Positions 7,730 to 64,000 of a DNA stretch of 64,000 nucleotides are shown one piece after another. The notes below the pieces were generated by a model. It had not been told where the DNA came from. It made no database searches and saw only the letters and a list, made by a program, of their open reading frames with translations. The translations under genes and the position numbers were made by a program. The stretch's first letter is position 1, and every line of letters starts with the position of its first letter. The stretch is from Phycisphaeraceae bacterium (lineage in GTDB: Bacteria > Planctomycetota > Phycisphaerae > Phycisphaerales > Phycisphaeraceae), in assembly GCA_963667295.1 (NCBI GenBank), contig OY763327.1:1060898-1124897 (forward strand). The letters run 5' to 3'.

Positions 7730-7756
7730 GTAGTGGCTAGTGACTGGAATTTTGAA

Positions 7757-7824: not shown

Positions 7825-8320
7825 CAATAACACGGAGACCTGACGACAACCCTAATCCCAACACCGCCCGTACCAGGAAGGAAGGGGCCAAAGTGGTACG
7901 CCGAGCATCCATCTCAATGATGCAAGGCGAAACGGACTGAATTCGGCCATCGTAGGATGCGAACCCGCATTGCGGCATGGCCGACCACGACTCTTCCTTC
8001 TCCCTCCTCCCCCTCGAGCCCCCCACCACTCGAGGGGGATCTTTTTGCGCCCACATAGCCCGACCATCCTGGTCGGGTTGTCTTTTCGGTATTGGTGCTG
8101 ACATGTCCCAATGTGCTCGGAAGGCAAACGTGCCACCCAATCCCACGTTTCCACAGAAGTCTGCGCAAACATGCCCTCATTGGAATTGCTCTACGTTAAC
8201 CCAACGGCACACGATATTTATGCACTTATGCGGGCAGGTTAATCACCCGATAATACGATTACTCGCTAGAATGCACGCAATAGCTGTTGGTTTAATTGTT
8301 ACCGATCCGGTGGTGAGTTC

Positions 8321-45364: not shown

Positions 45365-45444
45365 AAATCTGCACGATTCTTAATTTCAGGTCAGAACTTG
45401 AGTGGTGGTGTTTAGGGATTGATACTCCAATGTTACACCACAAC

Positions 45445-45993: not shown

Positions 45994-45998
45994 AGGTA

Positions 45999-47690: not shown

Positions 47691-48292
47691 GCCGTACCTC
47701 CGGTCAATTCAGTTTGTTTGGGCGCGCTGGAGTCCGTCCGTTTCGCGCCGGTTTCAAGTAAGAAGAAAATGACACCCGCAATGATAGCCAGCCCAAGGAT
47801 GAACCACCAAGGCGAAATGCCCGTTACGTCCGCAAAAGTTACCTTGCCCTCGTCCGCCACCTTCAGGAAACCATCCTTGATGTAGGGGTAGACCTCGGCG
47901 TAAATCCCTGCGCCGACAACCATTCCAAACAGGCCCGGCCAGGCGTGGCGGGAACCATCACCCAGTGCCGCCACACCGGTCCCCGGGCAGTAGCCCAGAA
48001 TCGCCATGCCCACGCCGAAGATCAACCCGCCCACGATGTTGGCAAGCAGCGTCGCACTCTTGATGTGCAGGCCGGTCTGCTCAAGCATACCCAGTTGCAG
48101 CATCCCCCAGATGCCGATCGCGCCGACGATGATGGCCGTCAGCATGGTCTTGAGCACGGTGAAGTCCTTCATCAGGAATTGCCCGATGATCACGTTATAC
48201 CGCGTCACGCCGCCAAGCTGCAGAAGCAGCCCGAATACCAGGCCGGTGACAAGCCCGGCAATCAACATCGAACCAGAATCAAAGCTCCACAT
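47687..48292 (-). CDS. YeeE/YedE-family sulfur-compound transporter subunit
   Basis: 201 aa polytopic; family glycine/Cys loop (LGYCPGTG). Confidence 0.7.
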   Translation of the reverse strand: MWSFDSGSMLIAGLVTGLVFGLLLQLGGVTRYNVIIGQFLMKDFTVLKTMLTAIIVGAIGIWGMLQLGMLEQTGLHIKSATLLANIVGGLIFGVGMAILGYCPGTGVAALGDGSRHAWPGLFGMVVGAGIYAEVYPYIKDGFLKVADEGKVTFADVTGISPWWFILGLAIIAGVIFFLLETGAKRTDSSAPKQTELTGGTA

Positions 48293-48875
48293 GATCGCGT
48301 CCTTTCATACCGAATAATGCGAACGCCGTGACGACGCCCGATGCAAACATCGCAAAGAAGAAGGTCCATGAACCCACTGCTAGCTGCAGCCCGCCGGAGA
48401 TGCCGTGCCCTGAAGTGCAACCGCCTGCCATTCGAGCGCCGAACAACAGCAGCACGCCACCGATAAACGCCGCGATATACCGCTTCATCTTGCTGGGGCC
48501 GAACCGAGCCGCCCAGACACTCGGTACACGTTCAATAAACTTATCACGTGCCAGTAGTTTCGATCCAACCAACGCGCCGCCGACCAGCCCGATCACCAGC
48601 ATGAACTGCCAGTCGAACATGTTCTTCTTAGGCGGGGCAAAGTACTTGGCGTAATACGCGTTCTGCTCGACATGTTCCGGTGCGGCGATGCCTGTCACAC
48701 AGCCGGAGATGTGCGCCATGGTCGTGCTGGTGCCCAGCGCTTTACCCATGCCGTAGAACGTGACCCAACTGAGTACACCGATCAATGCCCCGACGAGGTA
48801 GGGGCTCCAGCGTTTTCGTCCGAGTAATGTGCACGCAATCGGACAGGACTGTTCCTGATCTGCTTGCATTTTCAT
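48279..48875 (-). CDS. YeeE/YedE-family sulfur-compound transporter subunit
   Basis: 198 aa polytopic; family motif (GGCTSGHGISG); overlaps downstream paralog by 14 bp, suggesting an operon. Confidence 0.7.
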   Translation of the reverse strand: MKMQADQEQSCPIACTLLGRKRWSPYLVGALIGVLSWVTFYGMGKALGTSTTMAHISGCVTGIAAPEHVEQNAYYAKYFAPPKKNMFDWQFMLVIGLVGGALVGSKLLARDKFIERVPSVWAARFGPSKMKRYIAAFIGGVLLLFGARMAGGCTSGHGISGGLQLAVGSWTFFFAMFASGVVTAFALFGMKGRDHVEL

Positions 48876-48968
48876 GCTCCGTAAGGGGTAGGGGATAGTC
48901 TTGTAGGACGATCCGAGGCAGCACGAATACGCGCCTTCGGATCGCGTTGTATATCAGCAGGCCTTGGC

Positions 48969-49280
48969 CTATTCGGCATTACACCTGTGTCTGTGGATAC
49001 ATTGGATCACGTTGATCGCATTGGGATTGTCCACCCGGTAATAAGCCGTGCGTCCTTCGCGCTCGACATCGAGGATGCCGTGGGCCCGCATGTGATTCAG
49101 GTGCTGGCTGACCGCACTTGGCGCAAGGTCCACAGCTTCTGCCAACTCGCCGACACTCAGGCGGCCGCCCATCAACAGCTCAACAAACTTCAGCCGATGC
49201 GGGTGGGCCAATACACGCAGCACGCGTGCGGACTCTTCAAGCATTTCAATATCCAGAGGTGGTTTGATCGCTTGACTCAT
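48969..49280 (-). CDS. ArsR/SmtB-family transcriptional regulator
   Basis: 103 aa; winged HTH (LRVLAHPHRLKFVELL...SVGELAEAVDLAPSAVSQHLNHMR). Confidence 0.8.
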   Translation of the reverse strand: MSQAIKPPLDIEMLEESARVLRVLAHPHRLKFVELLMGGRLSVGELAEAVDLAPSAVSQHLNHMRAHGILDVEREGRTAYYRVDNPNAINVIQCIHRHRCNAE

Positions 49281-49357: not shown

Positions 49358-50182
49358 TCACATGGCTTGCGATGATGAACGAGCAATAGGCTCGCCACAT
49401 TCCGGACAGGTTATGGACTCAGTGCTCCCACGCAGGTCGTAGTTGCAGGCTGGGCAATGGCCTGGTTTGATTCCAGGAAGAAGTCTTTTAATGGCAGCTA
49501 CTATCGGCCAGACTGTGGATATGACAAATACGCTCCACATTGGAAATGTAAGTCGCCACCCAACGTTATACTTCTGAAATGCAAAGCCAAACCAAGACTT
49601 TGGTTGTATCAGGATACGCTTGGGGTATTGAATGTAAGTAGGGGGATAGGAAGGGTACGCAGCGATTTTTAGCTTCGGTTCGCGATACCTGTCACTCATA
49701 TACATCACGGCATCGCCTTTTTGAAGAGAAAATGAAAGGTGTAATCCGGTTCCGAGCATACGTGGCCAATCAGCATTGACCGACCATTTGTATGATCCAG
49801 CCCACAATACACCTGCAAGAATCATAAGCACCGTTAAGCATGCGACTGATACCCGGTACAGATCGCCTCGGATTATTCTCATCAAACGAACTTCAACAGG
49901 TCGAATCCGGTTTTGAATTCTGTCGCCTGTGTATGCTTGATCTGGCAGATGCGATCTACTGGCATAACGACGGGGCTTGAAACTGTATCGGTACACAAAT
50001 ACAGCAACGAAGCATGCGATGATCGTTGTCGGCATCCCCCACAGTGTCAAGATGCATAGATATTCATGCCACGTTGGTGGATCGCTGCTGGCAAAGGTGA
50101 TGTAATCCAGTTTGACAGCATCTTGCCAGAAGCGTTGGAGGATACTCAGGCCGCTTACAAATATCGCTGTCGCCACACCCAT
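49358..50182 (-). CDS. Hypothetical polytopic membrane protein with C-terminal zinc ribbon
   Basis: 274 aa; ends CPACNYDLRGSTESITCPECGEPIA; low GC; paralogous C-terminus to the next gene. Confidence 0.45.
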   Translation of the reverse strand: MGVATAIFVSGLSILQRFWQDAVKLDYITFASSDPPTWHEYLCILTLWGMPTTIIACFVAVFVYRYSFKPRRYASRSHLPDQAYTGDRIQNRIRPVEVRLMRIIRGDLYRVSVACLTVLMILAGVLWAGSYKWSVNADWPRMLGTGLHLSFSLQKGDAVMYMSDRYREPKLKIAAYPSYPPTYIQYPKRILIQPKSWFGFAFQKYNVGWRLTFPMWSVFVISTVWPIVAAIKRLLPGIKPGHCPACNYDLRGSTESITCPECGEPIARSSSQAM

Positions 50183-50240: not shown

Positions 50241-50567
50241 TCAAATCACCTCCCCGCACTCCGGGCACTCCAGCTTCGATAAGCCCTTGAGGATATAGCC
50301 ACACTGTCGGCATCGGCACTCACGGTCGTACCTCGGTCGTAGTATGAGTATGAATGCCAGCACGCTCGTTGCGCAGGTTAGACCTGTCATTGGGATGCCG
50401 ATCAGGCCTATTCTTATCAACTGCATCCACCAGAATCCCGGAGGCAGAGGGGCGTTCGCGACCTTGAGTTGGATGAACATAAGCAGATTACTGAACGCGA
50501 CGCCCACCACCGTGCCGCATGCCACCGCGATCAGGAACCGGCCGACGCCGCGTCTGGTTATCTGCAT
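50241..50567 (-). CDS. Small membrane protein with C-terminal zinc ribbon
   Basis: 108 aa; ends CRCRQCGYILKGLSKLECPECGEVI (same Cx2CxYxLxG...CPECGE pattern as 49358-50182). Confidence 0.45.
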   Translation of the reverse strand: MQITRRGVGRFLIAVACGTVVGVAFSNLLMFIQLKVANAPLPPGFWWMQLIRIGLIGIPMTGLTCATSVLAFILILRPRYDRECRCRQCGYILKGLSKLECPECGEVI

Positions 50568-50744: not shown

Positions 50745-50828
50745 GGCCGCGTGCCCGAGTGGACTAAGGGGGCTGATTGCAAATCAGCTAGGCTTCGCCT
50801 GTCGTGGGTTCGAATCCCACCGCGGCCT
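50745..50828 (+). tRNA. tRNA with anticodon GCA (Cys) and an atypical 15-nt variable arm; island integration target
   Basis: 7-bp acceptor ggccgcg/cgcggcc, U8; D-stem ccc/ggg with GG-containing loop; anticodon stem gctga/tcagc with loop ttGCAaa (U33, A37); variable arm taggcttcgcctgtc; T-arm gtggg-TTCGAAT-cccac; discriminator U73; CCA not encoded. Confidence 0.8.
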
Positions 50829-51000
50829 TACAGACGCACTTTTGTGCGTCTTTTTTATTGCACATAAAGCCTGCAATCGCAGTTATATGCATGATATCAC
50901 GCATTCTGGGGCTCTGAGATTGATTTGAAATACTGCACCCACACTGATACCATTTTGTTCAAGTAAGGTTACTTTTTCAGGCGCCCAAAGAGGCAGCACC

Positions 51001-52419
51001 ATGGCAAAGATTAAGTCTTCTGATGTCACTGTCAGCTTCAAGAAAAACAACAAAGGTAGGGGGGGGACCTTCTATAAGAAGTACAAAGACCCAGCTGATG
51101 GTAAGTGGAAAGTTAAGTACTTCTGTAAGGGTAAGGGCAAGTCTGACAGGGTGGCTGAGCGTAAAGCCAAAGCTATGTGCCTGGAGTGGCAAGAAGAGCT
51201 TGAGATGGTCGCAACTATGGCACGTGTAATCAATCGGGTGAAGGCAGCCACAGCCAACGGGGGCAACCCTGATGCCTTGGGAGATACCCTGGCTGAGCAG
51301 ATGGTGAAGGCCATGATGGGCAAACCTGATACAGCTGACGCCACCCCTGTGCATCAGCTTTCAGATGAAGACCTGGAAGAGCATTTTGAAGAGCCAGATA
51401 CCTTGGCTGACCAGGCTGCCAAGCAGCTGCTCTACTCCAAGCACTCTGCTGCTCGTAAGGTAAATCCCCAAAAGGGTAAGCCCACAATTTCTACGCTGGT
51501 AGAGCAGTGGCTGAGGTATGAGAAGTCACGTGTAGCCATTGGCAAGATTGGTGAGTCTACCTATGCCGACAAAGCCAAAAATGTGAAGCCCTTTGTTGAA
51601 CATGCCAACGGGGATTACTTCAATGGCAACGTAGAAGAGATGCTAATGAGCTTCAGGGCAAAGCTAGATATGCAGCTGGCAGCTGGTGAGATTGGCTCTG
51701 GCTGGACTCATATTGGCTATACCAAAGCCACATGGCAATTCATTGATTGGTGCTATACCAACCATAAGATTAGCGAGATGCCGCGCTGCAAGAAGCCGTT
51801 TTGTGAACGGGTGCCAGTAGATGAGGGCGGTAAGCCATTACAGCTGTCAGATATTCATAAACTCTGGTCTTCAGCTGGTGACCGTATGAAGTGCTTTATT
51901 GCTTTGGCTTTGAATTGTGGCATGAAAAATGCAGACATTGCTGCACTCAAGGGCAGCCAGCTTAAGGGCAACAGGTTGATTGGCTATAGGCCAAAGACTG
52001 GTGTGCCATTCAATATGAAGCTGTGGCCTGTAACAGTAGAGCTTATTGAGAAGTGCAGAGATAACCAGGGTGATGATGAGCTGCTGTTTGTGAATAAAGA
52101 TGGTGATGCAGTTAAGAGTGGTGTTATCAGCAGTCTCTTCAAGAAAGTCTCAACCAAGGCAGATGTGATTGTCGGTGAGACAAAGGGTGGTAATCCCAAG
52201 GGGGCCACTTTTGAGCAGCTGAGAGATAGCAGCATTGACCTGGTTGATAAGCAGTTGTTTGAGCTTGGCTATGATCGCGGTTTACTGCAGGTATTCCAGC
52301 AGCATGCCGACCCAAGCACTGCACGATACTATCGAGATAAGACACCGGAGCGTTTGCAGATTAAAAAACTGGATGAACTGACCGACTATCTGGGTGAGGT
52401 GTACGGGCTGAAGCTTTGA
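51001..52419 (+). CDS. Tyrosine-type site-specific integrase (phage integrase family)
   Basis: 472 aa; C-terminal catalytic region (LRDSSIDLV...HADPSTARYYRD with the terminal Tyr); lower GC than flanking chromosome; 172 bp downstream of the tRNA. Confidence 0.85.
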   Translation: MAKIKSSDVTVSFKKNNKGRGGTFYKKYKDPADGKWKVKYFCKGKGKSDRVAERKAKAMCLEWQEELEMVATMARVINRVKAATANGGNPDALGDTLAEQMVKAMMGKPDTADATPVHQLSDEDLEEHFEEPDTLADQAAKQLLYSKHSAARKVNPQKGKPTISTLVEQWLRYEKSRVAIGKIGESTYADKAKNVKPFVEHANGDYFNGNVEEMLMSFRAKLDMQLAAGEIGSGWTHIGYTKATWQFIDWCYTNHKISEMPRCKKPFCERVPVDEGGKPLQLSDIHKLWSSAGDRMKCFIALALNCGMKNADIAALKGSQLKGNRLIGYRPKTGVPFNMKLWPVTVELIEKCRDNQGDDELLFVNKDGDAVKSGVISSLFKKVSTKADVIVGETKGGNPKGATFEQLRDSSIDLVDKQLFELGYDRGLLQVFQQHADPSTARYYRDKTPERLQIKKLDELTDYLGEVYGLKL

Positions 52420-52443
52420 TCTCTTCTCAGCGATCTCCCGCCG

Positions 52444-52772
52444 TTAATCGACACTTATCCCCAATGCTTGCCAGAAAGCCATCTCCTGCATGATACGGAT
52501 ACCATAGCTTCTAGCTATATCTGCCTTGCTGGACTGTGTGTACGCATCTGCCACAACCAATAAATCCAGCTTCTTCGTAACCGATTTTGCGGGAACTAAA
52601 CCATGCTTATCAGCGAGTAATTGGGCCTGTTTCCGATCGATACGAACCCCATCGATAGAAGCCTGTAGCTCGCCAGTGAAACATACGCTTAGCCCTTCCA
52701 GCGATTGCTTATCTGGAACCTGGGGTGGAGCTACCTGTAATTTCTTCTGATTAGAGCTGGTCCCAAAATCTT
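52444..52772 (-). pseudogene. 3' fragment of a BRCT-domain gene truncated by the IS3 insertion
   Basis: Minus-strand frame open from the IS end to the TAA at 52444-52446; encodes ...KKLQVAPPQVPDKQSLEGLSVCFTGELQ...KKLDLLVVADAYTQSSKADIARSYGIRIMQEMAFWQALG, resembling the C-terminal linker plus BRCT of NAD-dependent DNA ligase; no start codon because the upstream part is displaced by IS3. Confidence 0.4.
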
Positions 52773-52810
52773 GGACAGCCGGTTGGCCTGAATAAGGTGG
52801 GCCAACGGGT

Positions 52811-53653
52811 TTATGCCGCGGCCAGCGGCGGTCCGGTTATAGGTTTTCCATCATACGCTTCGTCCGGCGTCCGTCCAGCGAGTGTCGAGTGCGGACGCTC
52901 GGTGTTGTAGAACCGCAGCCATTCATTGATCCCGGCGCGAGCTTCGCTGCCTCTGTCCCACGCGTGCAGGTACACGCATTCGTACTTCAGGCTCCGCCAC
53001 AGACGTTCGATGAACACGTTGTCCATCCATCGGCCTTTGCCGTCCATCGATACCTTCGCGCCCGCGTTCTTCACCGCTTCGGTCCATTCCAGGCCGGTGA
53101 ACTGGCTGCCCTGATCGGTGTTGATGATCTGCGGCGGGCCGTGCTTGCTCAGCGCTTCTTCCAACGCCTCGACGCAGAACGACGCCTCCATCGTGTTGCT
53201 CAATCGCCAAGCCAGCACCTTCCTGCTGTGCCAGTCCATGACCGCAACGAGGTACAAAAAGCCGCGTCGCATCGGGATGTATGTGATGTCGGCGCACCAC
53301 ACATGACCCGGCTGATCAATCTTCAGATTCCGCAGCAGGTACGGATACACCTTGTTTTCAAGGCATTTGACGCTGGTCTTCGGGGCCTGGTAGATCGGCG
53401 TCAAACCCATCTGGCGCATCAATCGACGCACACGCTTGCGGCCGACGTTGTAGCCAAGCCGACGCAACCAACGCATCATCTGCCGGCTGCCGTAGAACGG
53501 CGTGCACAGGAACTGTCGGTCGATCAGACGCATCAGACGCTCGTTGAACGCATCCTCACCGCTCGGCTTGTAGTACAACGTGCTGCGGCTCAAGCCCAGC
53601 AACTCACACTGCCGGCGGACCGGAATCAGGCTGTGCTTCGGTTCGATCATCAT
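52811..53653 (-). CDS. IS3-family transposase OrfB (DDE integrase core)
   Basis: 280 aa; rve/DDE core (DITYIPMRRGFLYLVAVMDWHSRKV...TDQGSQF...ERLWRSLKYECVY). Confidence 0.85.
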   Translation of the reverse strand: MMIEPKHSLIPVRRQCELLGLSRSTLYYKPSGEDAFNERLMRLIDRQFLCTPFYGSRQMMRWLRRLGYNVGRKRVRRLMRQMGLTPIYQAPKTSVKCLENKVYPYLLRNLKIDQPGHVWCADITYIPMRRGFLYLVAVMDWHSRKVLAWRLSNTMEASFCVEALEEALSKHGPPQIINTDQGSQFTGLEWTEAVKNAGAKVSMDGKGRWMDNVFIERLWRSLKYECVYLHAWDRGSEARAGINEWLRFYNTERPHSTLAGRTPDEAYDGKPITGPPLAAA

Positions 53654-53663
53654 CCGCTTCTGA

Positions 53664-53954
53664 TCAATCTGGAAACACCGACTTTTTTTTGAGCCAGTCC
53701 AACTCCACCTTCAACCGGCCGATCTCCCGATACAACCGGTCCACCAGCTCCGCCTGATCCGCCGCGTCCAGCTCACGCCGACGCCCGAACACCTCCGGCA
53801 ACGATTCGAGCAACTGCTTCTTCCACTGCGTGATCTGGTTGGCGTGCACCTCGTACTCGCCGGCCAACTCGGCTACCGTCTTCTGCCCCTTGATCGCCTC
53901 CAACGCCACCTTCGCCTTGAAGTCCGCCGAAAACCGCCGTCGCTTCCTCGCCAT
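53664..53954 (-). CDS. IS3-family transposase OrfA (HTH)
   Basis: 96 aa; IS3 HTH_Tnp_1 (RRFSADFKAKVALEAIKGQKTVAELAGEYEVHANQITQWKKQ); ends in KKKS at the frameshift heptamer. Confidence 0.85.
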   Translation of the reverse strand: MARKRRRFSADFKAKVALEAIKGQKTVAELAGEYEVHANQITQWKKQLLESLPEVFGRRRELDAADQAELVDRLYREIGRLKVELDWLKKKSVFPD

Positions 53955-54100
53955 CTGATTCGTCTCCTGTTAGGGATCGAATCCACCTTAACGACGCGCC
54001 CAGTTTTTGGGTAGTAGTACATGTAGCCGTTGAGGCGTGTTTTCGCGGCGTGTGGGGCCGGCGGCGGGTTGAGGTTGGTCGATCTGCTGTCCAAGTGTTT

Positions 54101-55273
54101 TCAAGCGAACAATGCCAACTGCGTCGGCGGCGGATCGGGCGGTTTGGTGTACGGTTCGTCCAGCCAACGCCACAGGTCCCGGTACACCAGCAGGTTCATC
54201 CGCAGCATGGCCGCGAGGTTGGACAGGCTCCAGCCGAAGCTTGATCGCAGCTTCAGCAGCTTGAGGATCAGCATCGCGATCAGTGCTGTCCAAAGCTGGA
54301 CCCGCACCGCGTTGGCGCTGGTGCCCAGGAACGTCTTGACGTGCAGGTTCTGCTTCAACGCTTTGAAGAACAGCTCGATCTGCCAGCGTTCTTTGTAGAT
54401 CGCCGCCAGCGTCGTCGCGCCGAACGTCAGGTGGTTGCTCAGCAGCTCGATCGTTCGGCGGTTCGCTTCGTCCCACACCACCACCCGGCGCAGCCGATGC
54501 GGGCAGGCGGCGTGGCTTCTTGTGCCCGCCAGCTCGATGACCTGGTCGGAGAGGATGTTACGATTCATCGGCACGGCACGCTCTTGGATCACGTTGTAGT
54601 CCAGGTTCGACTTGCACCGCGTGACGAACCACACGCCTTGCTCGCACCACGTGCCAAACAGGCCAAAGTCGGTGTAACCGCGGTCCACCGCCACGACCGT
54701 GCCCGGCTCAAAACGCAGTGTTTTAGCGGGGTTCACATCGTGCACCTTGCCCTCGGTCACCAGCGCCCAGCTCGGTAAGCAGCCTTGATGATCCAACTGA
54801 AGGTGCAGCTTCACCGCGCCCTTGGTCCGCCGGAACCGCGCCCAGTCGAACACCTGGGCACACAAGTCGATCACCGTCGCGTCCAGACTCACCAGCGGGT
54901 TCTTGAAGCGGAACCGACGCCCCCGGATGGCCTGCCGACCCGCCAACACCCGCGCCTGATCGAGCACCTGGTAGAACACCGCCTCGTAAAGCTCCCACGG
55001 CCGATGGGCGTTGGCGTAGCTGAGCGTCGACCGCGCCGGCGCCGCCGACACGCCCAGGTGACGCAGCCTGCCCATCGCGCACGCCAGGCCGCCGCAGACC
55101 TCCCGCAGCGAGTGCGCCCCGCCCAACTGCGCAAAGAGCATCGCCACCAGTTGGTCCCAGCAGGTAAACCCCTTCGCCCCACGCTCGGCATCAAACTCAC
55201 GCACCCGCCGATCAAACCCCGGCCGATCGATCAGACTCAACACTTGTGCAAACAGGCTTGCGACGCGTACCAT
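54101..55273 (-). CDS. IS4-family DDE transposase
   Basis: 390 aa; DDE_Tnp_1 hallmarks; element ends not confidently resolved; its 3' end lies only ~7 bp from the IS3 right end (abutting or nested insertion). Confidence 0.8.
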   Translation of the reverse strand: MVRVASLFAQVLSLIDRPGFDRRVREFDAERGAKGFTCWDQLVAMLFAQLGGAHSLREVCGGLACAMGRLRHLGVSAAPARSTLSYANAHRPWELYEAVFYQVLDQARVLAGRQAIRGRRFRFKNPLVSLDATVIDLCAQVFDWARFRRTKGAVKLHLQLDHQGCLPSWALVTEGKVHDVNPAKTLRFEPGTVVAVDRGYTDFGLFGTWCEQGVWFVTRCKSNLDYNVIQERAVPMNRNILSDQVIELAGTRSHAACPHRLRRVVVWDEANRRTIELLSNHLTFGATTLAAIYKERWQIELFFKALKQNLHVKTFLGTSANAVRVQLWTALIAMLILKLLKLRSSFGWSLSNLAAMLRMNLLVYRDLWRWLDEPYTKPPDPPPTQLALFA

Positions 55274-55387
55274 GGGCGTGTCTCCGTTGGGCTTCGAGGA
55301 CGATTAGACAACGCCATCGTAGCCGCAACGGAGACTTTTTCATTGATAAACTATGGATCGCTGTTTTGGACAAGAGTGTACACTTAT

Positions 55388-56407
55388 CTATTTTTTTTGG
55401 CTGTTATTGTTCGCAAGGCTCCTCTCAACCCGACCCTTTTTTTCAGAGGCTCCAGTTGCCACATGCCAATACCATCTACCGATATCGTCGTAACACTGTG
55501 CTGCAGGATAATGGTTAATAATCTGGTCATAGCAACGGAGTGCCTCATTTAAAGAGTCGGCCTTTTTATCTCCAGCAAACCTTGTCGCTTCTCCATAATA
55601 AGAATCTCCCGCTATATACCAACAAGTTCCAACATCAAAGAGGGCCCAAAATTCACGCCAATACTTTTCCTCATTATCCCGGCTGATTTTCGGCATATCA
55701 AGACCATACTGATCAATATGATCTTGCTGCTGTTCCTTAGCAAAAGACTGATATTGATCAATGCAAGAAAATGCTAACTTTCTCGCAATACTATAATCTT
55801 CAGATTTAAGATACTCCCATGCCAATGTTGTATACTGGCCTGAAGTTTGTGGGAATTGAGATTGGTTTTTCTTTTCCACCAAAACAAGGGCCAATTCACA
55901 TAACGGACGCACAGATATATCAACTTGCTGCACTTCTCCGTGAACAACAATCTCACTAATCCAATGAGCATCTGGGTACAAACTAATTACTTCCTTCAGT
56001 AGGTTTTTAGAGTCAATATAATTGCCTTTGCGTCGAAGGCAATCGCCCTTCAAAAACAAACAGACGCCGCTCATATTAGTATCGGTTGTTTGTGTGATAT
56101 ATTGATCAACTAATTGAATAACACGATCGCATTCGTCCTTCTCTCTCGCTTCCCAGATTTCATCAATTATAGAAATTGGTCTAGATGATTGATTCTCCAT
56201 GATAGCAATCTCGGAATTATGATATCCTGTGGTTCTACTTTGTGTATAAGATACCGAATTGGTATCTATCACTGAAGATAACTGTTCGGCTTGTGGTTCT
56301 CGAACATGATTATCATCACTTCCACTATCAGATTGCGATGAACATCCAATGATCAACAATAATTGAAACAGATAGACCGCATACAATGTAAGTTTGGCAA
56401 TATGCAT
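55388..56407 (-). CDS. Hypothetical lipoprotein with TPR-like helical repeats
   Basis: 339 aa; lipobox LLLIIGC; AT-rich (~40% GC) cargo gene. Confidence 0.5.
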   Translation of the reverse strand: MHIAKLTLYAVYLFQLLLIIGCSSQSDSGSDDNHVREPQAEQLSSVIDTNSVSYTQSRTTGYHNSEIAIMENQSSRPISIIDEIWEAREKDECDRVIQLVDQYITQTTDTNMSGVCLFLKGDCLRRKGNYIDSKNLLKEVISLYPDAHWISEIVVHGEVQQVDISVRPLCELALVLVEKKNQSQFPQTSGQYTTLAWEYLKSEDYSIARKLAFSCIDQYQSFAKEQQQDHIDQYGLDMPKISRDNEEKYWREFWALFDVGTCWYIAGDSYYGEATRFAGDKKADSLNEALRCYDQIINHYPAAQCYDDIGRWYWHVATGASEKKGRVERSLANNNSQKK

Positions 56408-56434
56408 AATAATGCACCTCTCCGTTATTCAATT

Positions 56435-57103
56435 TCAATTTGACTCTACAAGTATGTAATAATACACGGCGATATTACCTGGGCGTGTCTCTGTCGATCC
56501 TGCAGGCTGTGTCCTTACTTCATCCTGGATCGAATCAAACCATCTAGGCATATTTGGGTTGGTTGTGATTTGCGTTCTTGAGTTATCATGTGCTTGTGAC
56601 ACCATTGGAACAGAATGTGTATGTGATATTATGGAATCGGGCTGATAGTCACCAACTACACGATTTAATCCATCAGGATCCTCAAGACCGTCACTACGAA
56701 TCAATCCTGGTTCAAATGCATTTAACCCTCGTAAAAATGCACCACGTAAATCAGGAAGTTTTGTACGCCCTGTTATTTTTGCATAATCTGAGTCTGTGGA
56801 TATTTCGCGGCCATCCGCTGGCATCCAACGTGTTTTCACGCTGTCTCCATATGTTTCGTAAAGTTGATCCGGAGAAAGCGCACATGCGAATATTGTACCG
56901 ATGGGAACTCCAGGTGAACCGGGTGGGCCCTGGGGCCCTGATACGCCTTGAGGGCCAACAGCACCTTGATTTAAGTTTAATGCAGAAATAGTAACCAAAC
57001 CGGCTACAATACCGATGATCGTTGTAATCATTGCGATCCATGTACTGTAAATAGTTTTTGTATTAGAAAAGTGTTTGCTGCTTGTATGATCTGATTTAGC
57101 CAT
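56435..57103 (-). CDS. Membrane-anchored collagen-repeat protein with phage tail-collar domain
   Basis: Start taken at MAKSDHTSS (ATG 57103; ORF open to 57178); TM helix, GPQGVSGPQGPPGSPG Gly-X-Y run, then tail-collar signature (PIGTIFA...KLPDLRGAFLRG). Confidence 0.6.
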   Translation of the reverse strand: MAKSDHTSSKHFSNTKTIYSTWIAMITTIIGIVAGLVTISALNLNQGAVGPQGVSGPQGPPGSPGVPIGTIFACALSPDQLYETYGDSVKTRWMPADGREISTDSDYAKITGRTKLPDLRGAFLRGLNAFEPGLIRSDGLEDPDGLNRVVGDYQPDSIISHTHSVPMVSQAHDNSRTQITTNPNMPRWFDSIQDEVRTQPAGSTETRPGNIAVYYYILVESN

Positions 57104-58027
57104 ATGTTCTACTCGTTCCTGCTTGTACAATATGATGCATATAGACAAAGCTGACCATGAACCGATTATTATAACCACAAAAGAAAGGGCCGTTCAGATA
57201 AATATGTATAGCAATAATTACTCAATAAATAAAGGCACATAGCCAATCCATATAAGAAGTATCCCCAGTGGGGGACATCGCAGACCAGAGAATATGGAGT
57301 TGATGGAAAGCTGGACTATGGGTCGCCGAGTGGATAAGGCCGTAGATCGACAAGACCAGGTCGCCGAAGAGGTTCTGGATGGTGTAAAAAACTGGATCAT
57401 GTGTATTCTCATTGCGTTGATCTTGATGTGTTGAGTGTTTGGATCAGACAGGTTGTGGGCGTCAAGTTGATTTGGGGCTGGCGAGTTTGGACTTACTTAG
57501 AGTTTCCGAATTCTCAGCCAGCCAGCGGACCTTCTCATGGAAAGGCACACCGTTGGCCGGTTGCAGCAGCATCACGACGCCGACGCAGCCGACTTGGCCT
57601 TCATCCGTAAGGGGGGGGGTATGGGTCCATTAGTATGGGTATTCTGTTGCCGGTCTTAGCAGGATTGATGAAGAGTATGATACTCCCGATGTCAGGCTGT
57701 AAAAATAGACATAAAGCAGATATTGTTTAACGATATAAAGTTGTGAAATTGCTGACTATACAGTTATTCTTTCCAATCAGGACTCAGTCCACTCAAAGTC
57801 AATACAATTAAGGACTTGCTAAACCGGTTATTAAAAAGTAAAATTTTTAGCAGTCTCTCCGACCAGTTTCATCTATGGTCGTCGTTCGGTACGGAAGTTT
57901 ATAACGGGTACTGTCAGGATTCGCGGCGTATTAGGACGTTTCTAGGGAAGTTTTAAACTGGCTTTATCATCTCAGCCCGCGTCGGGTGAGAAGATCGTAG
58001 AAAATTCACTTAAGAAAGGGGCTTTGG

Positions 58028-59434
58028 GTGGCGATTCAAATGCGAATCAGGTTTTTGATATGTGTGATTTCCACGATGCTGATACTCTCTCTCTTCGTCG
58101 GCTGCAAGGTCCAGCCGGTGGATTACGATCAAGGTATGGAAGCGTGGCGGGCCTGCTGGCTACAAACCCAATATCTTGATCTAACCACCAATTCGGCTCT
58201 GATCCAACGGTTAGAGGATTTGCGTAATCAGATTCGTTCGATGGGGGCGGATGAGTGGTGGCGCCAGCGTAATGATGTTTACAACGCTCTGGTTTCACTG
58301 CGTGAAGCCAAGCACAGTTTTGATACGCAACTCGCCCGTGCGGGCAACACTGTAGACCGCGAGAGTGCAAATGATTTGTACAAAGCTACGGTCAAGGGTA
58401 TTCGGACCGAAGAAGATGCTCGACAAGCTGCTCCGAAGATCGACCAACTCGTAGATATCCAGAAACGACTCGACAGACTAAATAATATCGGTTTGAATCC
58501 GAGCTCAGAAGCCGCAAAGCAGATAGATACATTTGATCAACAATTAGCCTCCTTGTCGGCTGACGAAATCCTACAAAAGCTAGGTCGGCTCGAACAACTC
58601 ATTGAGAGAATCTTAGCGGTTCAAAAAGCCTTGAATGAACGGTTGGGCCAATTAGATTCAGCGGCGCAGCGCCAACAAGCGGCTGACCTTCAAAAGGAGA
58701 TCGAGGAGGCGAACTCAAACGAAGATGTGGACCAGATCGTGAGACAGTTCAAGCAGCTTTTCGGAGGTAAGGTTGCAATAGTCCCGGGACCTGATAATAC
58801 GTCCGTGAGTAAGGCAACCCCGGGGGGGGTAAGTCAGACTCAAAACTCAGACCAAACCGGCGTGGTGAGTCCCAATCCAAATATCAGCCAAGACCAAATC
58901 AAATCCGCGCTTAGTAAAGAGGAGGAATTGACAGTTCCCGGTTCTCAAGAGTTAGGCAATCCATTTGAGAGTCCATTTTATAAGCGTTATGAAATAGATA
59001 TCGCACCTTATGGGATCACAGAGTCAGATGGTAAAGCCAAGATTGACGCCAAGTGTATCACTCGTGAGATCCGAGCTAAATTGCAACTAAAACCAGATGG
59101 CGAGTTCAGTTCTATCAAAGGAACAAAAGTGCTTCGGGAATACCAGTTGGGGCTGATCCAAGGTGCCAAAGAAACATGGACCGAGAATGAAGCCAATGTA
59201 TCAATGGAGCTAGTGGGGGTACCAGAAAACGCCAGAGTGATCATGCATTCTTGGCACGCGCTGCCGGTGCCGGCGAGTAACGGCAAGGTTATTGAAGGCA
59301 CCACGATTGATCAGACCGTGGGCCAGTTTCGGCTGCCGGCAGGTCGTTACTACATACTCGGACAAGGTGAGACAGACTGGGGCTATGGTTTCGACGTGAT
59401 GGGAGCGATGACCATCAAGCATCCAGTTGAATGA
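58028..59434 (+). CDS. Hypothetical lipoprotein with long coiled-coil region and ~150-aa C-terminal domain (cassette gene 1)
   Basis: 468 aa; GTG start 6 nt after AAAGGGG; lipobox LSLFVGC; heptad-rich middle; contains a G8 tract at 58822-58829. Confidence 0.5.
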   Translation: MAIQMRIRFLICVISTMLILSLFVGCKVQPVDYDQGMEAWRACWLQTQYLDLTTNSALIQRLEDLRNQIRSMGADEWWRQRNDVYNALVSLREAKHSFDTQLARAGNTVDRESANDLYKATVKGIRTEEDARQAAPKIDQLVDIQKRLDRLNNIGLNPSSEAAKQIDTFDQQLASLSADEILQKLGRLEQLIERILAVQKALNERLGQLDSAAQRQQAADLQKEIEEANSNEDVDQIVRQFKQLFGGKVAIVPGPDNTSVSKATPGGVSQTQNSDQTGVVSPNPNISQDQIKSALSKEEELTVPGSQELGNPFESPFYKRYEIDIAPYGITESDGKAKIDAKCITREIRAKLQLKPDGEFSSIKGTKVLREYQLGLIQGAKETWTENEANVSMELVGVPENARVIMHSWHALPVPASNGKVIEGTTIDQTVGQFRLPAGRYYILGQGETDWGYGFDVMGAMTIKHPVE

Positions 59435-59463
59435 TAACAGATTAGAATTGTTATAAGGGATGC

Positions 59464-62022
59464 ATGGGGGCGTCGCAAAGAGCTGGGGATTACATGATAC
59501 CAGTGGAGACAGTCAAGCAGACACTGAACGACTTAGAACGATGGTATTGGTGCCATGGAATCGAGCGCATCAACCGGACAGACTATCCTTTGCGGCCTGA
59601 TTGGGCTGCTGAAATCTACACAATCCAACGAACAGCCACGCAGATCCTTGAGCGGCAGCACTACCCGCGTCCCGCTCTTGCGATCTACGGTGAGAGCCAG
59701 GTTGGTAAGTCCACAATACTCATGACCGAACTGGATGATACTCGGGCGATCGCCGATACATCCGGTGAAAACACCGTCCTGTCGGCAATCCAGTGGGACG
59801 ACCGACCTGTTACTTGGGGCGACTGGCGTTCTTGGCACGATTCTGCTGACTATATCGTAACGAAGACCGAACCGCTGAACCCCTATTCGGCGGGTACCGA
59901 CGCGACTGCAGTACCGACGCGTTTCACTCTCACCACGAACGTAACTGAGCCACAGATACCTTATCAGATTAGGATGCAATCTGTTGATAGCTTGATCGCC
60001 GCGCTGTACGCAGGCCTTTCGGATCATGGCCAAATCGACGCTCCTAATGGAAAACCGCGAGGTATTAAGAAGATCGAAATTACGCCTGGAGAACCTGATG
60101 CCGACCTCCAACGAGCTTTGATGTTGTTGGAAGCGGTGCGGCAGATGGTGGCGGAAAAGGAACTACTAATTAATGAAGCCGGTCGCCGCGTGCACGAGCT
60201 TGAGCCATTCTCCATCAATGAATTGTTTCCGTGTACTTATAATCAAGCCCGACGCTGGGTGGGTGAGTATCTGTTTGGCAAGTCACACTCGCTGTTTGAT
60301 AACATTCTCAGTGAGCACCTACGACTTATCGAACTGCTTGAATTTTTGAACCAGTACAACACCGTTCTCTGTAGTCCCCTTGTGGCGAGGCGGATATTAA
60401 AGTTCGATCATAGTGGTGAAGAAACATTATCGGAGATGATGTTCTATGAGCGTTCGAATGAGAACGGTAGGCGTGAACTCGCGATGGCCATGGAGCACGA
60501 ATATGATCCCAGCGAGAGGTGGCAAGTTATGGATCGCGACAGACTGCCCATCACCCGGGTAGTAGCGTTCCAGTTGGTAGTGCGAGAATTAGTAGTCCCG
60601 GTACGTGAGGACGTGCTGGGACGAATCAACGCCCCTTTTGCTGATGTCCTTCGACACGCAGATATCATCGATTTCCCTGGCATCTCCATTATGCCTGATC
60701 GTCACCGAGGTCAATCTATCGACAATGACGAACGGCGAGCATTTGTACTCAAATTCGGCAAGACCGCCTGTGTGCTTCGCGACTTTGTCGCTAGTGAACT
60801 TATTGATGGTATCCTTTTTGTCTGTACTGCCGAGGGTAAGATACGGGATTCCACCTCAGACTTGTTCACCCGAGTCATTGAACGTTGGGTTGGTAAAACC
60901 ACGTCTCAAGCTATTTCACTTAGTGAGGTCGAGCAGAACACACCTACGCAAGAGCGGCCTGTTTGGTGGGTAGCGACCCGTTGGAATGCGGTCGAAGCGG
61001 CCAAGGCCACGACGACCATCTCTGCGGGGATCGGTTCGATCCAGCAAGGTCTGCAGCACTGTCGTTTTAGACTTTATGCGACACATTATCCCATCTGGAA
61101 TGAAATGATCGCCAGTCCAGAAGAAGAGCAGCGAATCCGCTCTCTTATGAGAGGGCGGCTAAGGAAGCATATCCGGGATGACGGTGCCCAAAAGTCTTTT
61201 GACAATATCAAACTCACTATCTTAAAACCCGGTGAAGCTTTGGAGAGCACCCGGTGTATCTGGGATGATGTGAGTCACGTCTACAAAGACTTTGTCACTC
61301 ACGTCGACCTGACCGAGAGGCGAATCGCGAATCTTCGGGACGATATCCGTCGTCTTCTACAACGCAATGAAGCATATCCCGGTGGTGAACAGGTCACACA
61401 GAATAATCAGCGCCGGGTAAATCTCCGCAAACTGGAATACTGCCTGTTGCATACCCAAATCAAACGGCAGCTTGTACTAAGCGTGTCTCCTTTACCACGT
61501 CACCTGCTTGCTCAGTTAGCCGGTTCAGTAGAAGCTGGGGATTATGCCTCGGGTTTGTTCAAGGCCATGATGAGGTCCCTGCGTGATCAGTGGCGCGAAC
61601 AAGCTCGGGATGAGTTTGCACAGTATCTGTCAGCGTCTGAAGTTGGTGAATTGACAAAAGCTCTTGAGGACTCGGTCTGGATGGCAACGAGTGCGAACGA
61701 TTCCATGAGAACCGAGTTCTACGATTTGTTTCCTCGGGGACGGGCAGTCGACTCCAATCGGTATCATCGTCTCGATGGATTGGGGCAATTGATGGCTATG
61801 CGACTGGGGGACTGGCTAACAGGCTTGGCCGAGGAACCTCACGGACTACGAGATGAGGACATTCCTCACATAATCGAGCGGTTAGTTACACAGGATGCGA
61901 CCTACGGCACCCGGGACCCTTTACCGGGCGATACGCAGCTATCAGCAATCTCAGGGCTTAGTCAGTTCTGGGATTCGATAGATTTGGTGAATGGAGTTGA
62001 AGAGGGGGATACACAACTATGA
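59464..62022 (+). CDS. Large P-loop NTPase, possibly dynamin-like GTPase (cassette gene 2)
   Basis: 852 aa; Walker A/G1 LAIYGESQVGKST (~aa 77), dynamin-G3-like hhDxPG motif ADIIDFPGIS (~aa 397); no close family recognisable by eye; stop overlaps next start (ATGA). Confidence 0.55.
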   Translation: MGASQRAGDYMIPVETVKQTLNDLERWYWCHGIERINRTDYPLRPDWAAEIYTIQRTATQILERQHYPRPALAIYGESQVGKSTILMTELDDTRAIADTSGENTVLSAIQWDDRPVTWGDWRSWHDSADYIVTKTEPLNPYSAGTDATAVPTRFTLTTNVTEPQIPYQIRMQSVDSLIAALYAGLSDHGQIDAPNGKPRGIKKIEITPGEPDADLQRALMLLEAVRQMVAEKELLINEAGRRVHELEPFSINELFPCTYNQARRWVGEYLFGKSHSLFDNILSEHLRLIELLEFLNQYNTVLCSPLVARRILKFDHSGEETLSEMMFYERSNENGRRELAMAMEHEYDPSERWQVMDRDRLPITRVVAFQLVVRELVVPVREDVLGRINAPFADVLRHADIIDFPGISIMPDRHRGQSIDNDERRAFVLKFGKTACVLRDFVASELIDGILFVCTAEGKIRDSTSDLFTRVIERWVGKTTSQAISLSEVEQNTPTQERPVWWVATRWNAVEAAKATTTISAGIGSIQQGLQHCRFRLYATHYPIWNEMIASPEEEQRIRSLMRGRLRKHIRDDGAQKSFDNIKLTILKPGEALESTRCIWDDVSHVYKDFVTHVDLTERRIANLRDDIRRLLQRNEAYPGGEQVTQNNQRRVNLRKLEYCLLHTQIKRQLVLSVSPLPRHLLAQLAGSVEAGDYASGLFKAMMRSLRDQWREQARDEFAQYLSASEVGELTKALEDSVWMATSANDSMRTEFYDLFPRGRAVDSNRYHRLDGLGQLMAMRLGDWLTGLAEEPHGLRDEDIPHIIERLVTQDATYGTRDPLPGDTQLSAISGLSQFWDSIDLVNGVEEGDTQL

Positions 62023-64000
62023 TCCATCTGCGTGCCAATACAGGAACCCGTGCCTTCATTGTCTCGCCATGCACGAACGATTCCAACCGAGGATACACCC
62101 GTACCCTGCCTGATAAGTCATGGGTGCTGACAAGCCGAGCTGAACTCGATGGTAAGTGGTGGCACACTGTAGTCATCGAGACCAACACCGGTACCGCCCA
62201 ACGTGGGATTCGCTGGCCAGTTGAACAAGGTAAATCGGACCAAGACATTAATCCATCCTACCGTAGCTCTCAGCCCAATGTACCCCAAGAAAACCCTGAT
62301 AAGGTGTCTTGGGCGTGTGAGATCTGTAAACAGAAGCTTGATGTGGAAGTCAAGTGGGAGACGCACCGGGATAAGAGCGTGGTATACGACTTGGTAGTTG
62401 ATTTAGGCACTTCACGCTCCTCGGCGCTATTCGTAAAACAGGGCGAAGCGGGCGCAAATATTTCTAAACAGGTGGCCCCGTTGCCTTTCTGGCCAGAAGG
62501 TATATCTGGAGACACCCTCGACAACAAAATATCTGCTCCGCGGGGTCGCGACTATTCTGTGGTCCCATCATTAGCTTTCCTTTACCCGCACACATACGAC
62601 GCTCCAGAGATTTGGGAACCGTTGCTTTACAACGCCCGAGTACGGTTCAAGAACAGTACCCAAAACTCTCGCTGGTTGGATCCAATCTACACTTGGCTAC
62701 ACTTTCGATCGGGTAAACAGGACGACTATCAGGCAATCACCCAGCGCCCGTTGATGTTTATCCGGGCCTGCCCATTGTTGCTGAGCGCACACTCGAGCAC
62801 AAGAGAATCCAGTAGTCTGTGGAACCGTTTAATCAATGTCTACAACATCGGAGCGAGTACCACCGCAAGCTACCTGCAACCTGCTCCCAAGCGCTACCTC
62901 GCTAGTGAGAATCCAATATTGTGGGGATTCCCGATGGGATTGCAGTCAGACAAGGTGCATAACCCATTGATCGCTCGGATTATGCACACCAATGGATATG
63001 ACTGGCAACTCGGTCTTATCCACGAGCTTTATTACCCGACTGGTGCTCATGGTGGCGTCTGGCGTTTTCCTAGGCACGGATCACTAGTCTGGTATTGTTT
63101 GGGTATTTTAGAGCAGGCTTGGGAACAACTTCAGTCTGATTGGCTGGTTCGACACTTCGAGGGACCAAAAGTTAATGCCGCTCGCATCTATCGTCGGTTC
63201 GGTACGATCATTGCTACAATGCCCCCAGGCTGGCCTCCACGGGCAAAAATCCGTTGGCGTGCGGCTTGGCAAAGGGCGATTGACTTATTTCGCCAACTAC
63301 ATATAGAAACCAACAAGCTGAACACCAACCAGTCTGATGGCGTTTGGCCTGTTCTGGGTGAGGATGAGATAGATGAAGCATCTGCGGCCCAGATACCATT
63401 CGTAGGCGCGCTGTTGGAGGGCGGTGGCGAGTCTCTATCCAAGCTATGCACTGCGCTACGTCGTAATGGGAATCCGAGTAAGAATAGATTCCGTGTCATG
63501 ACGATTGATGTGGGTGGGGGGACCACCGACTTGTCTATCTGTCGCTACGAGGTTTTGGACAACTACAACATTCAAGCTTCGATCGTGATGTCACACAGTA
63601 GTGTTACTGCGGGCGATGAGGTGGTGTATGAGTTGTTGGAGAAGCTAATCATCCCAAAACGCCTTGAGAATATCCCTGACTCGGAGCTTAGAGATCAGGT
63701 GAGATTGCTTCTCAATCAGCCCGATGAGCAACTAGACGAACCTTGGAAAATCCAGATGCACAAGGACCAGTGTTATCTAGTTTTCACGGCGCTTGCCCAC
63801 GAGCTTCTCAAGCAGATGGCAGCCTCGAGCAAGGCAGAGCGTGAATCAGGCATCGTAGTCATAGACGCTAAGAATACCGACGCCGGTATGGGACTTGAAT
63901 ACATCCAGTCGTTGTTAGATGCGGCATCATCTGATCCATCGAAATTGGGAAATGACGAGATAACCTTAGACCGAGGAGCAGTAGTTAAAATATTCTTATC
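62019..64000 (+). CDS. Hsp70/actin-fold (ASKHA) ATPase-like protein, 3'-truncated by window end (cassette gene 3)
   Basis: At least 660 aa, no stop before the window end (so absent from the ORF track); phosphate-1-like VYDLVVDLGTSRSSALF (~aa 135) and phosphate-2 FRVMTIDVGGGTTDLSI (~aa 495) motifs; ATG overlaps the upstream stop. Confidence 0.55.
   Translation, partial: MIHLRANTGTRAFIVSPCTNDSNRGYTRTLPDKSWVLTSRAELDGKWWHTVVIETNTGTAQRGIRWPVEQGKSDQDINPSYRSSQPNVPQENPDKVSWACEICKQKLDVEVKWETHRDKSVVYDLVVDLGTSRSSALFVKQGEAGANISKQVAPLPFWPEGISGDTLDNKISAPRGRDYSVVPSLAFLYPHTYDAPEIWEPLLYNARVRFKNSTQNSRWLDPIYTWLHFRSGKQDDYQAITQRPLMFIRACPLLLSAHSSTRESSSLWNRLINVYNIGASTTASYLQPAPKRYLASENPILWGFPMGLQSDKVHNPLIARIMHTNGYDWQLGLIHELYYPTGAHGGVWRFPRHGSLVWYCLGILEQAWEQLQSDWLVRHFEGPKVNAARIYRRFGTIIATMPPGWPPRAKIRWRAAWQRAIDLFRQLHIETNKLNTNQSDGVWPVLGEDEIDEASAAQIPFVGALLEGGGESLSKLCTALRRNGNPSKNRFRVMTIDVGGGTTDLSICRYEVLDNYNIQASIVMSHSSVTAGDEVVYELLEKLIIPKRLENIPDSELRDQVRLLLNQPDEQLDEPWKIQMHKDQCYLVFTALAHELLKQMAASSKAERESGIVVIDAKNTDAGMGLEYIQSLLDAASSDPSKLGNDEITLDRGAVVKIFL

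Follow-up and report, generated by a model that had tools for sequence, protein, structure and literature searches.

The 64-kb stretch of Phycisphaeraceae DNA analysed here (contig OY763327.1; the whole stretch of 64,000 nucleotides (nt) is called the window below) holds a single called transfer RNA (tRNA) gene, a tRNA-Cys(GCA) at 50745–50828 on the + strand, which carries a long hairpin arm in its variable region. We find that this is very probably a normal, functional tRNA-Cys gene of the Phycisphaeraceae, and that the arm is a hairpin inserted into an ordinary tRNA-Cys, where it is most likely tolerated. The gene is most likely the only tRNA-Cys of its genome and is presumably expressed.

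ARAGORN called the gene with a length of 84 nt. The Rfam model RF00005 covered it from end to end (56.5 bits, with a gathering score of 29, E = 1.6e-9, model positions 1–71) and placed the anticodon loop where ARAGORN did. RNAfold yielded the cloverleaf and a variable-arm hairpin at −39.4 kcal/mol (z = −2.5). The layout reads GGCCGCG-UG-CCCG-AGUGGACUA-AGGG-G-GCUGA-UUGCAAA-UCAGC-UAGGCUUCGCCUGUC-GUGGG-UUCGAAU-CCCAC-CGCGGCC-U, with stems of 7 base pairs (bp) in the acceptor, 5 bp in the T arm and 5 bp in the anticodon arm, and with the T loop UUCGAAU. CCA is not encoded, and the Levitt pair is G15:C48. A related Phycisphaeraceae chromosome of 5.5 Mb (L040) has an identical tRNA-Cys, and the two sequences share about 93% identity across the 9 kb upstream of the gene. 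An earlier note on this DNA had described a complete 7/5 tRNA with GCA, U73, U33/A37, the UUCGAAU T loop and a 15-nt arm, and all of these features are present in the ARAGORN, Rfam and RNAfold results. It had also considered another placement of the anticodon loop and a partial attachment-site (att) duplication. The covariance model gave no alternative loop, and the end-to-end Rfam match and the identical copy in L040 establish a full-length gene. Of the G15:G48 pair mentioned there, G15 is present, but position 48 is C. The G15:G48 type of E. coli and Haemophilus is conserved in few bacteria only (PMC9976931).

The arm is not restricted to these two genomes. A scan with one genome per species looked for a Cys anticodon arm followed by a standard T arm 17–28 nt later, a pattern that excludes ordinary tRNA-Cys, which would leave a gap of 10–11 nt. 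At least 119 genome stretches matched, and about 110 of them contained a full ARAGORN tRNA-Cys(GCA) of 81–88 nt, which amounts to more than 100 species. Among the matches listed, the record titles are nearly all Phycisphaerae, Phycisphaerales, Phycisphaeraceae or unclassified Planctomycetota. Conservation was calculated for 85 unique family sequences. G1–C72, C4–G69, G15:C48 and U73, the last of which was not imposed by the search pattern, occurred in 85/85 sequences each, G2–C71 in 84/85 and C3–G70 in 71/85. The anticodon loop UUGCAAA was invariant (85/85), partly because the search pattern forced it. Position 13:22 was a G·A mismatch in 77 sequences and A·A in the other 8, the 12:23 pair covaried (AU 42, CG 40, UA 3), and compensatory changes were present in every stem.

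Covariation was tested on an indel-free alignment of 27 unique 83-nt members. Paired cells made up 98.3%, and both sides had changed in 15 of the 24 pairs. None of 500 shuffles reached any of the observed covariation measures, and partner registers that were slid along the alignment paired in just 32–55%. All five helices covaried, and in the variable helix changes on both sides were seen for 4/4 pairs. The distinct variable regions all folded as hairpins (48/48), with a mean minimum free energy of −4.2 kcal/mol versus −0.8 kcal/mol for shuffles. The family arm comprises a region of 12–18 nt with a 2–5-bp stem, caps that are mostly GCAA, GAAA or GUAA, and a 2–4-nt tail ending in C48. The long-arm tRNA-Cys family represents a functional RNA under conservation, as opposed to a fold that arose by chance.

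The origin of the arm became apparent from genes that do not have it. A metagenome scan that used the 3' half of the family as its anchor and allowed a short or a long gap returned 113 tRNA-Cys genes, 56 of them short (74-nt tRNAs with a 5–6-nt variable loop) and 57 long (12–17-nt arm). The short forms carry the same acceptor (GGCCGYG), D arm (3-bp stem, R13·A22, 20a/20b) and anticodon arm as the long forms; all that differs is UAUUC, which has become U-[hairpin]-UUC in the long forms. Both forms share a locus, in which nuoG and nuoH stand about 1.1–1.4 kb upstream and a MoxR-type AAA ATPase gene just downstream, with one tRNA per locus. A same-strand nuoH was found upstream at 40 of the 96 long-arm loci and 3 of the 24 short-arm loci with room for it; for a same-strand moxR downstream, the numbers were 38 of 108 and 4 of 41, respectively. 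One short-arm locus, L405, has both neighbours. From the common body and the common nuoH–tRNA–moxR locus, the short-arm and long-arm genes are orthologs, with the arm inserted in place into a pre-existing tRNA-Cys. We propose that the ancestral 5-nt variable loop (UAUUC) expanded in place within the Phycisphaerales, probably through a 2–5-bp hairpin that usually received a GNRA tetraloop cap. The outcome is a tRNA of 81–88 nt that is class-II-shaped and otherwise canonical 7/5. The earlier suggestion of an unusual Cys isoacceptor is thus right as to the Cys identity; as to the rest, the gene is not an odd extra one but the lineage-typical tRNA-Cys of the Phycisphaerales, orthologous to short-arm genes.

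Tandem tRNA-Cys duplicates occur in one sub-clade of the Phycisphaerales. Both copies are long at two loci (L008 and L101), and one is long and the other short at L085 and L107, so both forms can coexist in one cell. One copy of each tandem pair is of the A9/A13 type and the other of the G9/G13 type. The second copy in L085 and L107 has a 5-nt variable loop, and that of L085 also has an A31·C39 mismatch.

As a class I synthetase, CysRS contacts the side of the tRNA that faces away from the variable region. The arm would therefore most likely be a tolerated elaboration, presumably a near-neutral one. Tolerance is also expected because tRNA-Cys already possesses the features by which class II tRNAs accommodate their long arm, an open 3-bp D stem (R13·A22) and an enlarged D loop, because short- and long-arm orthologs and tandem copies coexist, and because the length and sequence of the arm vary freely. 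The coexistence of the two forms could be read in another way, namely that the long-arm gene is an accessory Cys isoacceptor, specialised or redundant, and that a canonical short tRNA-Cys elsewhere in the genome is the main decoder. The short and long copies side by side in L085 and L107 would fit this arrangement, and so would the about equal frequency in metagenomes of short and long forms with the same 3' half (56 vs 57). The two forms are, however, found at the same nuoH–tRNA–moxR locus in different genomes, one per locus, as expected of orthologs. Strong purifying selection also acts on the long form, whose helices all show compensatory changes across more than 100 species, and the five complete chromosomes among the scan matches gave one match each. 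We therefore regard an accessory role as quite unlikely.

The identity elements were compared with the bacterial determinants compiled in PMC9976931 (Table 1), which are U73, G2–C71, C3–G70 and G34–C35–A36 for CysRS; G73, C72, G2–C71, R4–Y69 (purine–pyrimidine), C11–G24, a large variable region and G30–C40 for SerRS; A73, G34 and U35 for TyrRS; and A73 for LeuRS. The CysRS set is complete in the window tRNA and invariant or dominant across the family. The departure from class I architecture lies in the variable region, which has 15 nt in the window and 12–18 nt in the family in place of a 4–5-nt loop. U73 and C4–G69 are invariant, so that G73 and R4–Y69 of the SerRS set are missing. The TyrRS and LeuRS sets are also broken, by U73 in place of A73 and by C35 in place of U35. 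In this organism, the four [4Fe-4S] ligands of NuoF (C368, C371, C374 and C420), which align to cysteines of PDB 8x9v_F, a complex I subunit of known structure, are all encoded by UGC (TGC) codons. Because of these codons, we infer that UGY is read as cysteine without recoding. CysRS would accordingly be expected to charge the long-arm tRNA with cysteine, and the tRNA to read UGU and UGC. The effect on the genetic code is probably nil.

The same comparison bears on a possible descent of the gene from a class II tRNA (Ser, Tyr or Leu lineage) in which the anticodon became that of Cys, in the manner of the nev-tRNAs discussed below. Such a tRNA would insert an amino acid other than Cys at UGY, or act as an intermediate, charged with Ser, in the tRNA-dependent synthesis of Cys. 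The long arm itself would fit this descent, as would the presence of some SerRS determinants, a D arm that resembles the one in E. coli tRNA-Tyr (CCCGAGUGGACUAAGGG vs CCCGAGCGGCCAAAGGG) and a layout with one unpaired nucleotide 5' and three 3' of the arm, again similar to E. coli tRNA-Tyr. The same D arm, acceptor and anticodon arm are nevertheless present in a 74-nt class I tRNA-Cys at the orthologous locus, U73 is invariant with G73, A73 and U35 absent, 4:69 is C–G and not R–Y, and UGC encodes the four Fe–S ligands of NuoF. In phage tRNA arrays, the identity of the long Cys tRNA to co-resident Tyr, Ser and Leu tRNAs is 0.62–0.71, no closer than background. We consider this descent very improbable, and an origin from Tyr, Ser or Leu tRNAs by anticodon shift was rejected, as the short-arm orthologs already have the D arm resembling that of E. 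coli tRNA-Tyr. The likeness to E. coli tRNA-Tyr in D arm and arm layout arises because tRNA-Cys already has a class-II-like D arm. An indirect Ser-to-Cys route, with SerRS recruited through the arm, is similarly hard to believe. With these results, two proposals of the earlier note find no support. A Ser-GCU-derived tRNA with a changed anticodon is contradicted by the body common to class I tRNA-Cys and by U73 and C4–G69 where SerRS calls for G73 and R4–Y69, and a potential recoding is contradicted by the UGC codons for the essential Fe–S cysteines of NuoF.

Long-arm tRNA-Cys genes were also found in phages. In a complete scan with the long-gap pattern, 62 IMG/VR contigs matched (L123–L184), and about 55 of these have a tRNA-Cys(GCA) with U73 and a hairpin arm of 12–20 nt. 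The genes lie in tRNA arrays of up to 26 genes, encode CCA and belong to several unrelated body families, which begin with GTGAGCG..., GCTGAGA..., GGCGCCT... and ATTCAAG.... One contig, L133, has a tRNA-Cys body of the Phycisphaerales type. The short-gap pattern matched at least 120 IMG/VR contigs. Because several unrelated phage body families also carry the arm, the long-arm tRNA-Cys is a recurrent invention and not a peculiarity of the Phycisphaerales. This recurrence leaves room for selection on the arm.

An arm that is functional and selected could be read by a lineage-specific partner, such as a CysRS variant or a modification enzyme, or could shield the tRNA against a nuclease that targets tRNAs. 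Selection would account for the separate long-arm tRNA-Cys families of the Phycisphaerales and of the roughly 55 phage arrays, whose bodies are unrelated, and for the hairpin having stayed helical, with GNRA or UUCG caps that are stable. Most of the remaining class I isotypes in these arrays have no long forms at all. Against this, length (12–18 nt), stem (2–5 bp) and sequence are free to vary, with no sequence-specific readout apparent, and the arm is dispensable in close relatives, which have tandem short and long copies and short-arm orthologs. Some Ile, Lys and Met tRNAs of the phage arrays are also long, suggesting a general permissiveness, and no candidate partner was identified. Taken together, a selected arm seems rather unlikely. 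With a similarly low probability, Cys would be a fifth isotype able to form a genuine 7/5 class II tRNA, in which a non-neutral arm was gained repeatedly because it alters an interaction. The interaction may be with a co-evolved CysRS or modification enzyme, or the arm may allow escape from a nuclease or defence system that targets tRNA-Cys.

In the phage arrays (L123–L304), tRNAs that ARAGORN called Ile, Lys, Met, Trp, His, Val or Thr were sometimes 80–94 nt long. The counts of long tRNAs, again from ARAGORN calls, were 3/22 and 11/32 for Ile, 6/28 for Lys and 3/38 for Met. Long arms or insertions on class I isotypes may therefore be more general in phage arrays. ARAGORN also reported irregular anticodon loops in tRNA arrays, with four-base ('ccta', 'agaa', 'ttgt') or two-base ('at', 'tg', 'ga') anticodons. 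These could be frameshift-suppressor-like tRNAs or prediction artefacts.

Several observations weigh against a normal tRNA-Cys with a tolerated arm. Of the SerRS determinants, C72, G2–C71, C11–G24, G30–C40 and the large variable region are present, and U73 also occurs in presumed Ser-accepting allo-tRNAs (Mukai et al., PMC5389517). Judged from the sequence, some mis-serylation may be conceivable. The repeated rise of long arms, in the Phycisphaerales and in several phage families, could mean selection and not neutrality. A tblastn search with E. coli CysRS of about 0.9 Mb of Phycisphaerales loci gave no match, although this sample is small and the result uninformative. Finally, a scan confined to sigma-70-like promoters gave no match upstream of the tRNA on the + strand; as it did not cover other promoter types, we do not take this as evidence against expression.

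The tRNA gene also marks the start of a probable integrated island. The GC content falls from 0.569 before the tRNA end to 0.507 after it. Homology between the window and L040 extends to U73 and is lost at once beyond it; each sequence has a terminator hairpin of its own (109 nt of the L040 downstream sequence were compared). Partial copies of the tRNA-Cys 3' part, running from the anticodon stem to U73 and joined to unrelated 5' sequence, are present in relatives (L049, L080, L084 and L097). Contig CBDCYN010000030.1 carries both the full tRNA (L003), with an integrase directly at its 3' end, and a partial copy (L080) on the same strand at a distance of 37.6 kb. Integration targeted to the tRNA thus has its classic signature in relatives, and the context supports it in the window. 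The earlier note had called the tRNA the integration site of the island, and the context bears this out through the adjacent integrase, the loss of homology to L040 at U73, the drop in GC and the partial tRNA repeats in relatives.

We propose that the 3' half of tRNA-Cys, from the anticodon stem to U73, acts as the attachment site of tyrosine-integrase elements and that the island of the window would begin directly after U73. The repeat at its far end would be about 57 nt long (GATTGCAAATCAGCTAGGCTTCGCCTGTCGTGGGTTCGAATCCCACCGCGGCCT) and would be followed by an L040-like flank (TTTCGACCCGC...). Searches of the window for an attR copy of the tRNA 3' end (with up to three mismatches, and with blastn-short) and for the downstream flank of L040 returned only chance 9–11-mers. 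As the window holds no second tRNA copy, the island must be at least 13 kb long, with its far end beyond the window. No homologs of the window integrase were found in the other loci, and different integrase families use the same tRNA-Cys site, as seen for L003 and the window.

This position raises the question of whether the gene could be a non-functional att-site remnant or, alternatively, an allo-tRNA or a tRNA-Cys of the selC* type. It does sit at the integration junction, and a long arm with GCA and U73 is also the signature of selC* tRNA-Cys. The arrangement is nevertheless 7/5, with a 5-bp anticodon stem, a 3-bp D stem and no A51a bulge. The gene is of full length and identical to that of L040, and the true partial copies in relatives begin in the anticodon stem and have no 5' half. 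Both possibilities appear extremely improbable. The allo-tRNA-like structure named in the earlier note does not agree with the 7/5 arrangement, which is neither 8/4 nor 9/3, nor with D and anticodon stems that are not elongated.

In L084, about 2 kb separate the partial att-type tRNA-Cys 3' copy (3527–3568) from a Cas1 gene and an open reading frame (ORF) with a Cas9-like RuvC_III domain (5529–7999); a CRISPR–Cas locus may be present on or beside an element integrated at tRNA-Cys. In the window, the island includes ORFs of 247, 468 and 852 amino acids (aa) without a significant Pfam match (region 55388–62022), in the part of the window with the lowest GC (0.43–0.51).

Directly upstream of the tRNA, two adjoining membrane-like ORFs (49358–50182 and 50241–50567, both on the − strand) have a similar C-terminal zinc ribbon, CPxCxYxLxG...CPECGE, and gave no Pfam match. 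The segment 49412–50241 could not be aligned to L040, though its flanks are about 93% identical. Further upstream lies a sulfur-handling cluster (45445–49280), whose order is partly conserved in L030 and L040. A Sel1-like repeat ORF of 408 aa (44138–45364, − strand) is located in a low-GC stretch (0.494) at 44135–45445. This region is a strain-specific insertion in otherwise syntenic DNA, because about 127 bp stand in its place in L040. No cysS was found in the window by a Pfam search of the large ORFs.

Table 1. Coordinates of features in the window and of selected tRNA genes in other sequences.
Feature	Sequence	Coordinates	Strand	Basis or remark
tRNA-Cys(GCA), 84 nt, 7/5 cloverleaf, long variable arm	window	50745..50828	+	ARAGORN, Rfam RF00005, RNAfold, identity to L040
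D arm: 3-bp stem C10–G25, C11–G24, C12–G23; G13·A22 mismatch	window	50754..50770	+	Rfam alignment
D loop, 11 nt, AGUGGACUA: G15, G18G19, extra 20a/20b	window	within 50754..50770	+	Rfam alignment
Anticodon GCA in loop UUGCAAA (U33, A37)	window	50779..50781; anticodon arm 50772–50788	+	ARAGORN, Rfam
Variable region, 15 nt, UAGGCUUCGCCUGUC: hairpin AGGC/GCCU (+ U·G; 4–5 bp), loop UUC	window	50789..50803	+	RNAfold
Unpaired tail GUC closing the variable region; its last base, C48, pairs with G15	window	within 50789..50803	+	RNAfold
Discriminator U73 (T in DNA), major CysRS identity element	window	50828	+	family conservation; identity rules PMC9976931
Intrinsic terminator hairpin AGACGCAC-TTTT-GTGCGTCT (50832–50851), then T run	window	50832..50857	+	sequence; differs from the terminator behind the same tRNA in L040
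Tyrosine recombinase, 472 aa, likely island integrase, 172 bp downstream of the tRNA	window	51001..52419	+	Pfam PF00589 Phage_integrase, E 1.4e-9, 38.4 bits (cut-off 27.1)
Probable integrated island, running past the window end	window	50829..64000		lower GC, integrase, two insertion sequence (IS) elements, ORFs without Pfam match, homology break
IS3-type element: orfA 53664–53954, orfB 52811–53653	window	52811–53954		island cargo
DDE_Tnp_1/DUF4372 transposase	window	54101–55273		island cargo
TPR protein	window	55388–56407		island cargo
ArsR-family regulator-like ORF	window	48969–49280		sulfur cluster
Two YeeE/YedE-like membrane ORFs	window	47687–48875		sulfur cluster
CoA-disulfide-reductase-type flavoprotein fused to a rhodanese domain	window	45999–47690		sulfur cluster
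Rhodanese-like membrane protein	window	45445–45993		sulfur cluster
Tandem tRNA-Cys duplicates, 135–250 bp apart	L008; L101; L085; L107	4111–4407; 3718–3991; 1659–1993; 3383–3684		
Phage long-arm tRNA-Cys, examples	L124; L144; L131	9032–9115; 4682–4764; 2618–2707		IMG/VR contigs
Irregular anticodon loops	L016	7198–7280		also L161, L163, L156, L141

In an entire bacterial order and in many phages, a tRNA-Cys that is canonical 7/5 in other respects bears an additional, covarying arm. It offers a natural, recent and experimentally tractable example of a class I tRNA turning class II, and with it one can test how well an extra arm is accommodated by a class I synthetase, by EF-Tu, by the ribosome and by modification enzymes. 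Annotation pipelines clearly label the long-arm genes tRNA-Cys without comment. In annotation and in the design of orthogonal tRNAs, recoding should not be concluded from a long arm that occurs together with GCA and U73. The finding should interest tRNA specialists.

Reviews describe long variable arms as specific to tRNA-Ser, tRNA-Leu, bacterial tRNA-Tyr and tRNA-Sec, and place tRNA-Cys in class I. The long-arm Cys tRNAs described so far are only the selC* species with their aberrant 8/4 structure; we found no published description of a 7/5 long-arm tRNA-Cys in the full-text literature, a corpus that does not cover most subscription journals. A close known counterpart is the canonical class I tRNA-Cys, represented by the 74-nt E. 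coli cysT. It has the same GCA in UUGCAAA, U73, G1–C72, G2–C71, C3–G70, 7/5 arrangement and 3-bp D stem with a purine13·A22 mismatch, and its anticodon arm GCGGA/UCCGU is identical in most family members. It differs in its variable region, which has 4–5 nt, whereas that of the family has 12–18 nt with a 2–5-bp hairpin. The family also has the extra 20a and 20b in the D loop, and G15:C48 where the E. coli type has G15:G48. With the bacterial class II tRNAs (Ser, Leu, Tyr), the family has in common the long hairpin arm, the 3-bp D stem with G13·A22 and the 11-nt D loop with 20a/20b, and with E. coli tRNA-Tyr the roughly one 5' and three 3' unpaired nucleotides at the arm. Unlike them, it has a Cys anticodon and discriminator and a body common to short-arm tRNA-Cys, so that the arm would be secondary and not a class II inheritance, and its cognate synthetase is not known to read the arm.

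The selC* tRNA-Cys shares the long arm, GCA and U73. The selC* and allo-tRNAs are minor extra species of Firmicutes, Thermodesulfobacteria, Nitrospirae, Proteobacteria and Acidobacteria (Mukai et al. 2017, PMC5389517), and have an 8/4 or 9/3 arrangement, elongated anticodon and D stems and an A51a bulge (PMC5389517, PMC7609411), whereas the tRNA studied here is 7/5 with normal stems, comes from Planctomycetota and is apparently the housekeeping tRNA-Cys. The nematode nev-tRNAs are class II tRNAs with Leu-type bodies and Gly or Ile anticodons, which are charged with Leu, mistranslate and are weakly expressed (PMC3333845, PMC4033280). They too combine a long arm with an anticodon from a class I isotype, but the body and identity elements of the present tRNA are the cognate (Cys) ones, and UGY would be decoded as Cys. 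As an integration site, the gene resembles the tRNA-gene attB sites of tyrosine-integrase islands and prophages, with an integrase abutting the 3' end, synteny lost at the tRNA end and, in relatives, a direct repeat of the 3' segment that bounds the element; the only difference is that the duplicated segment includes the long variable arm.

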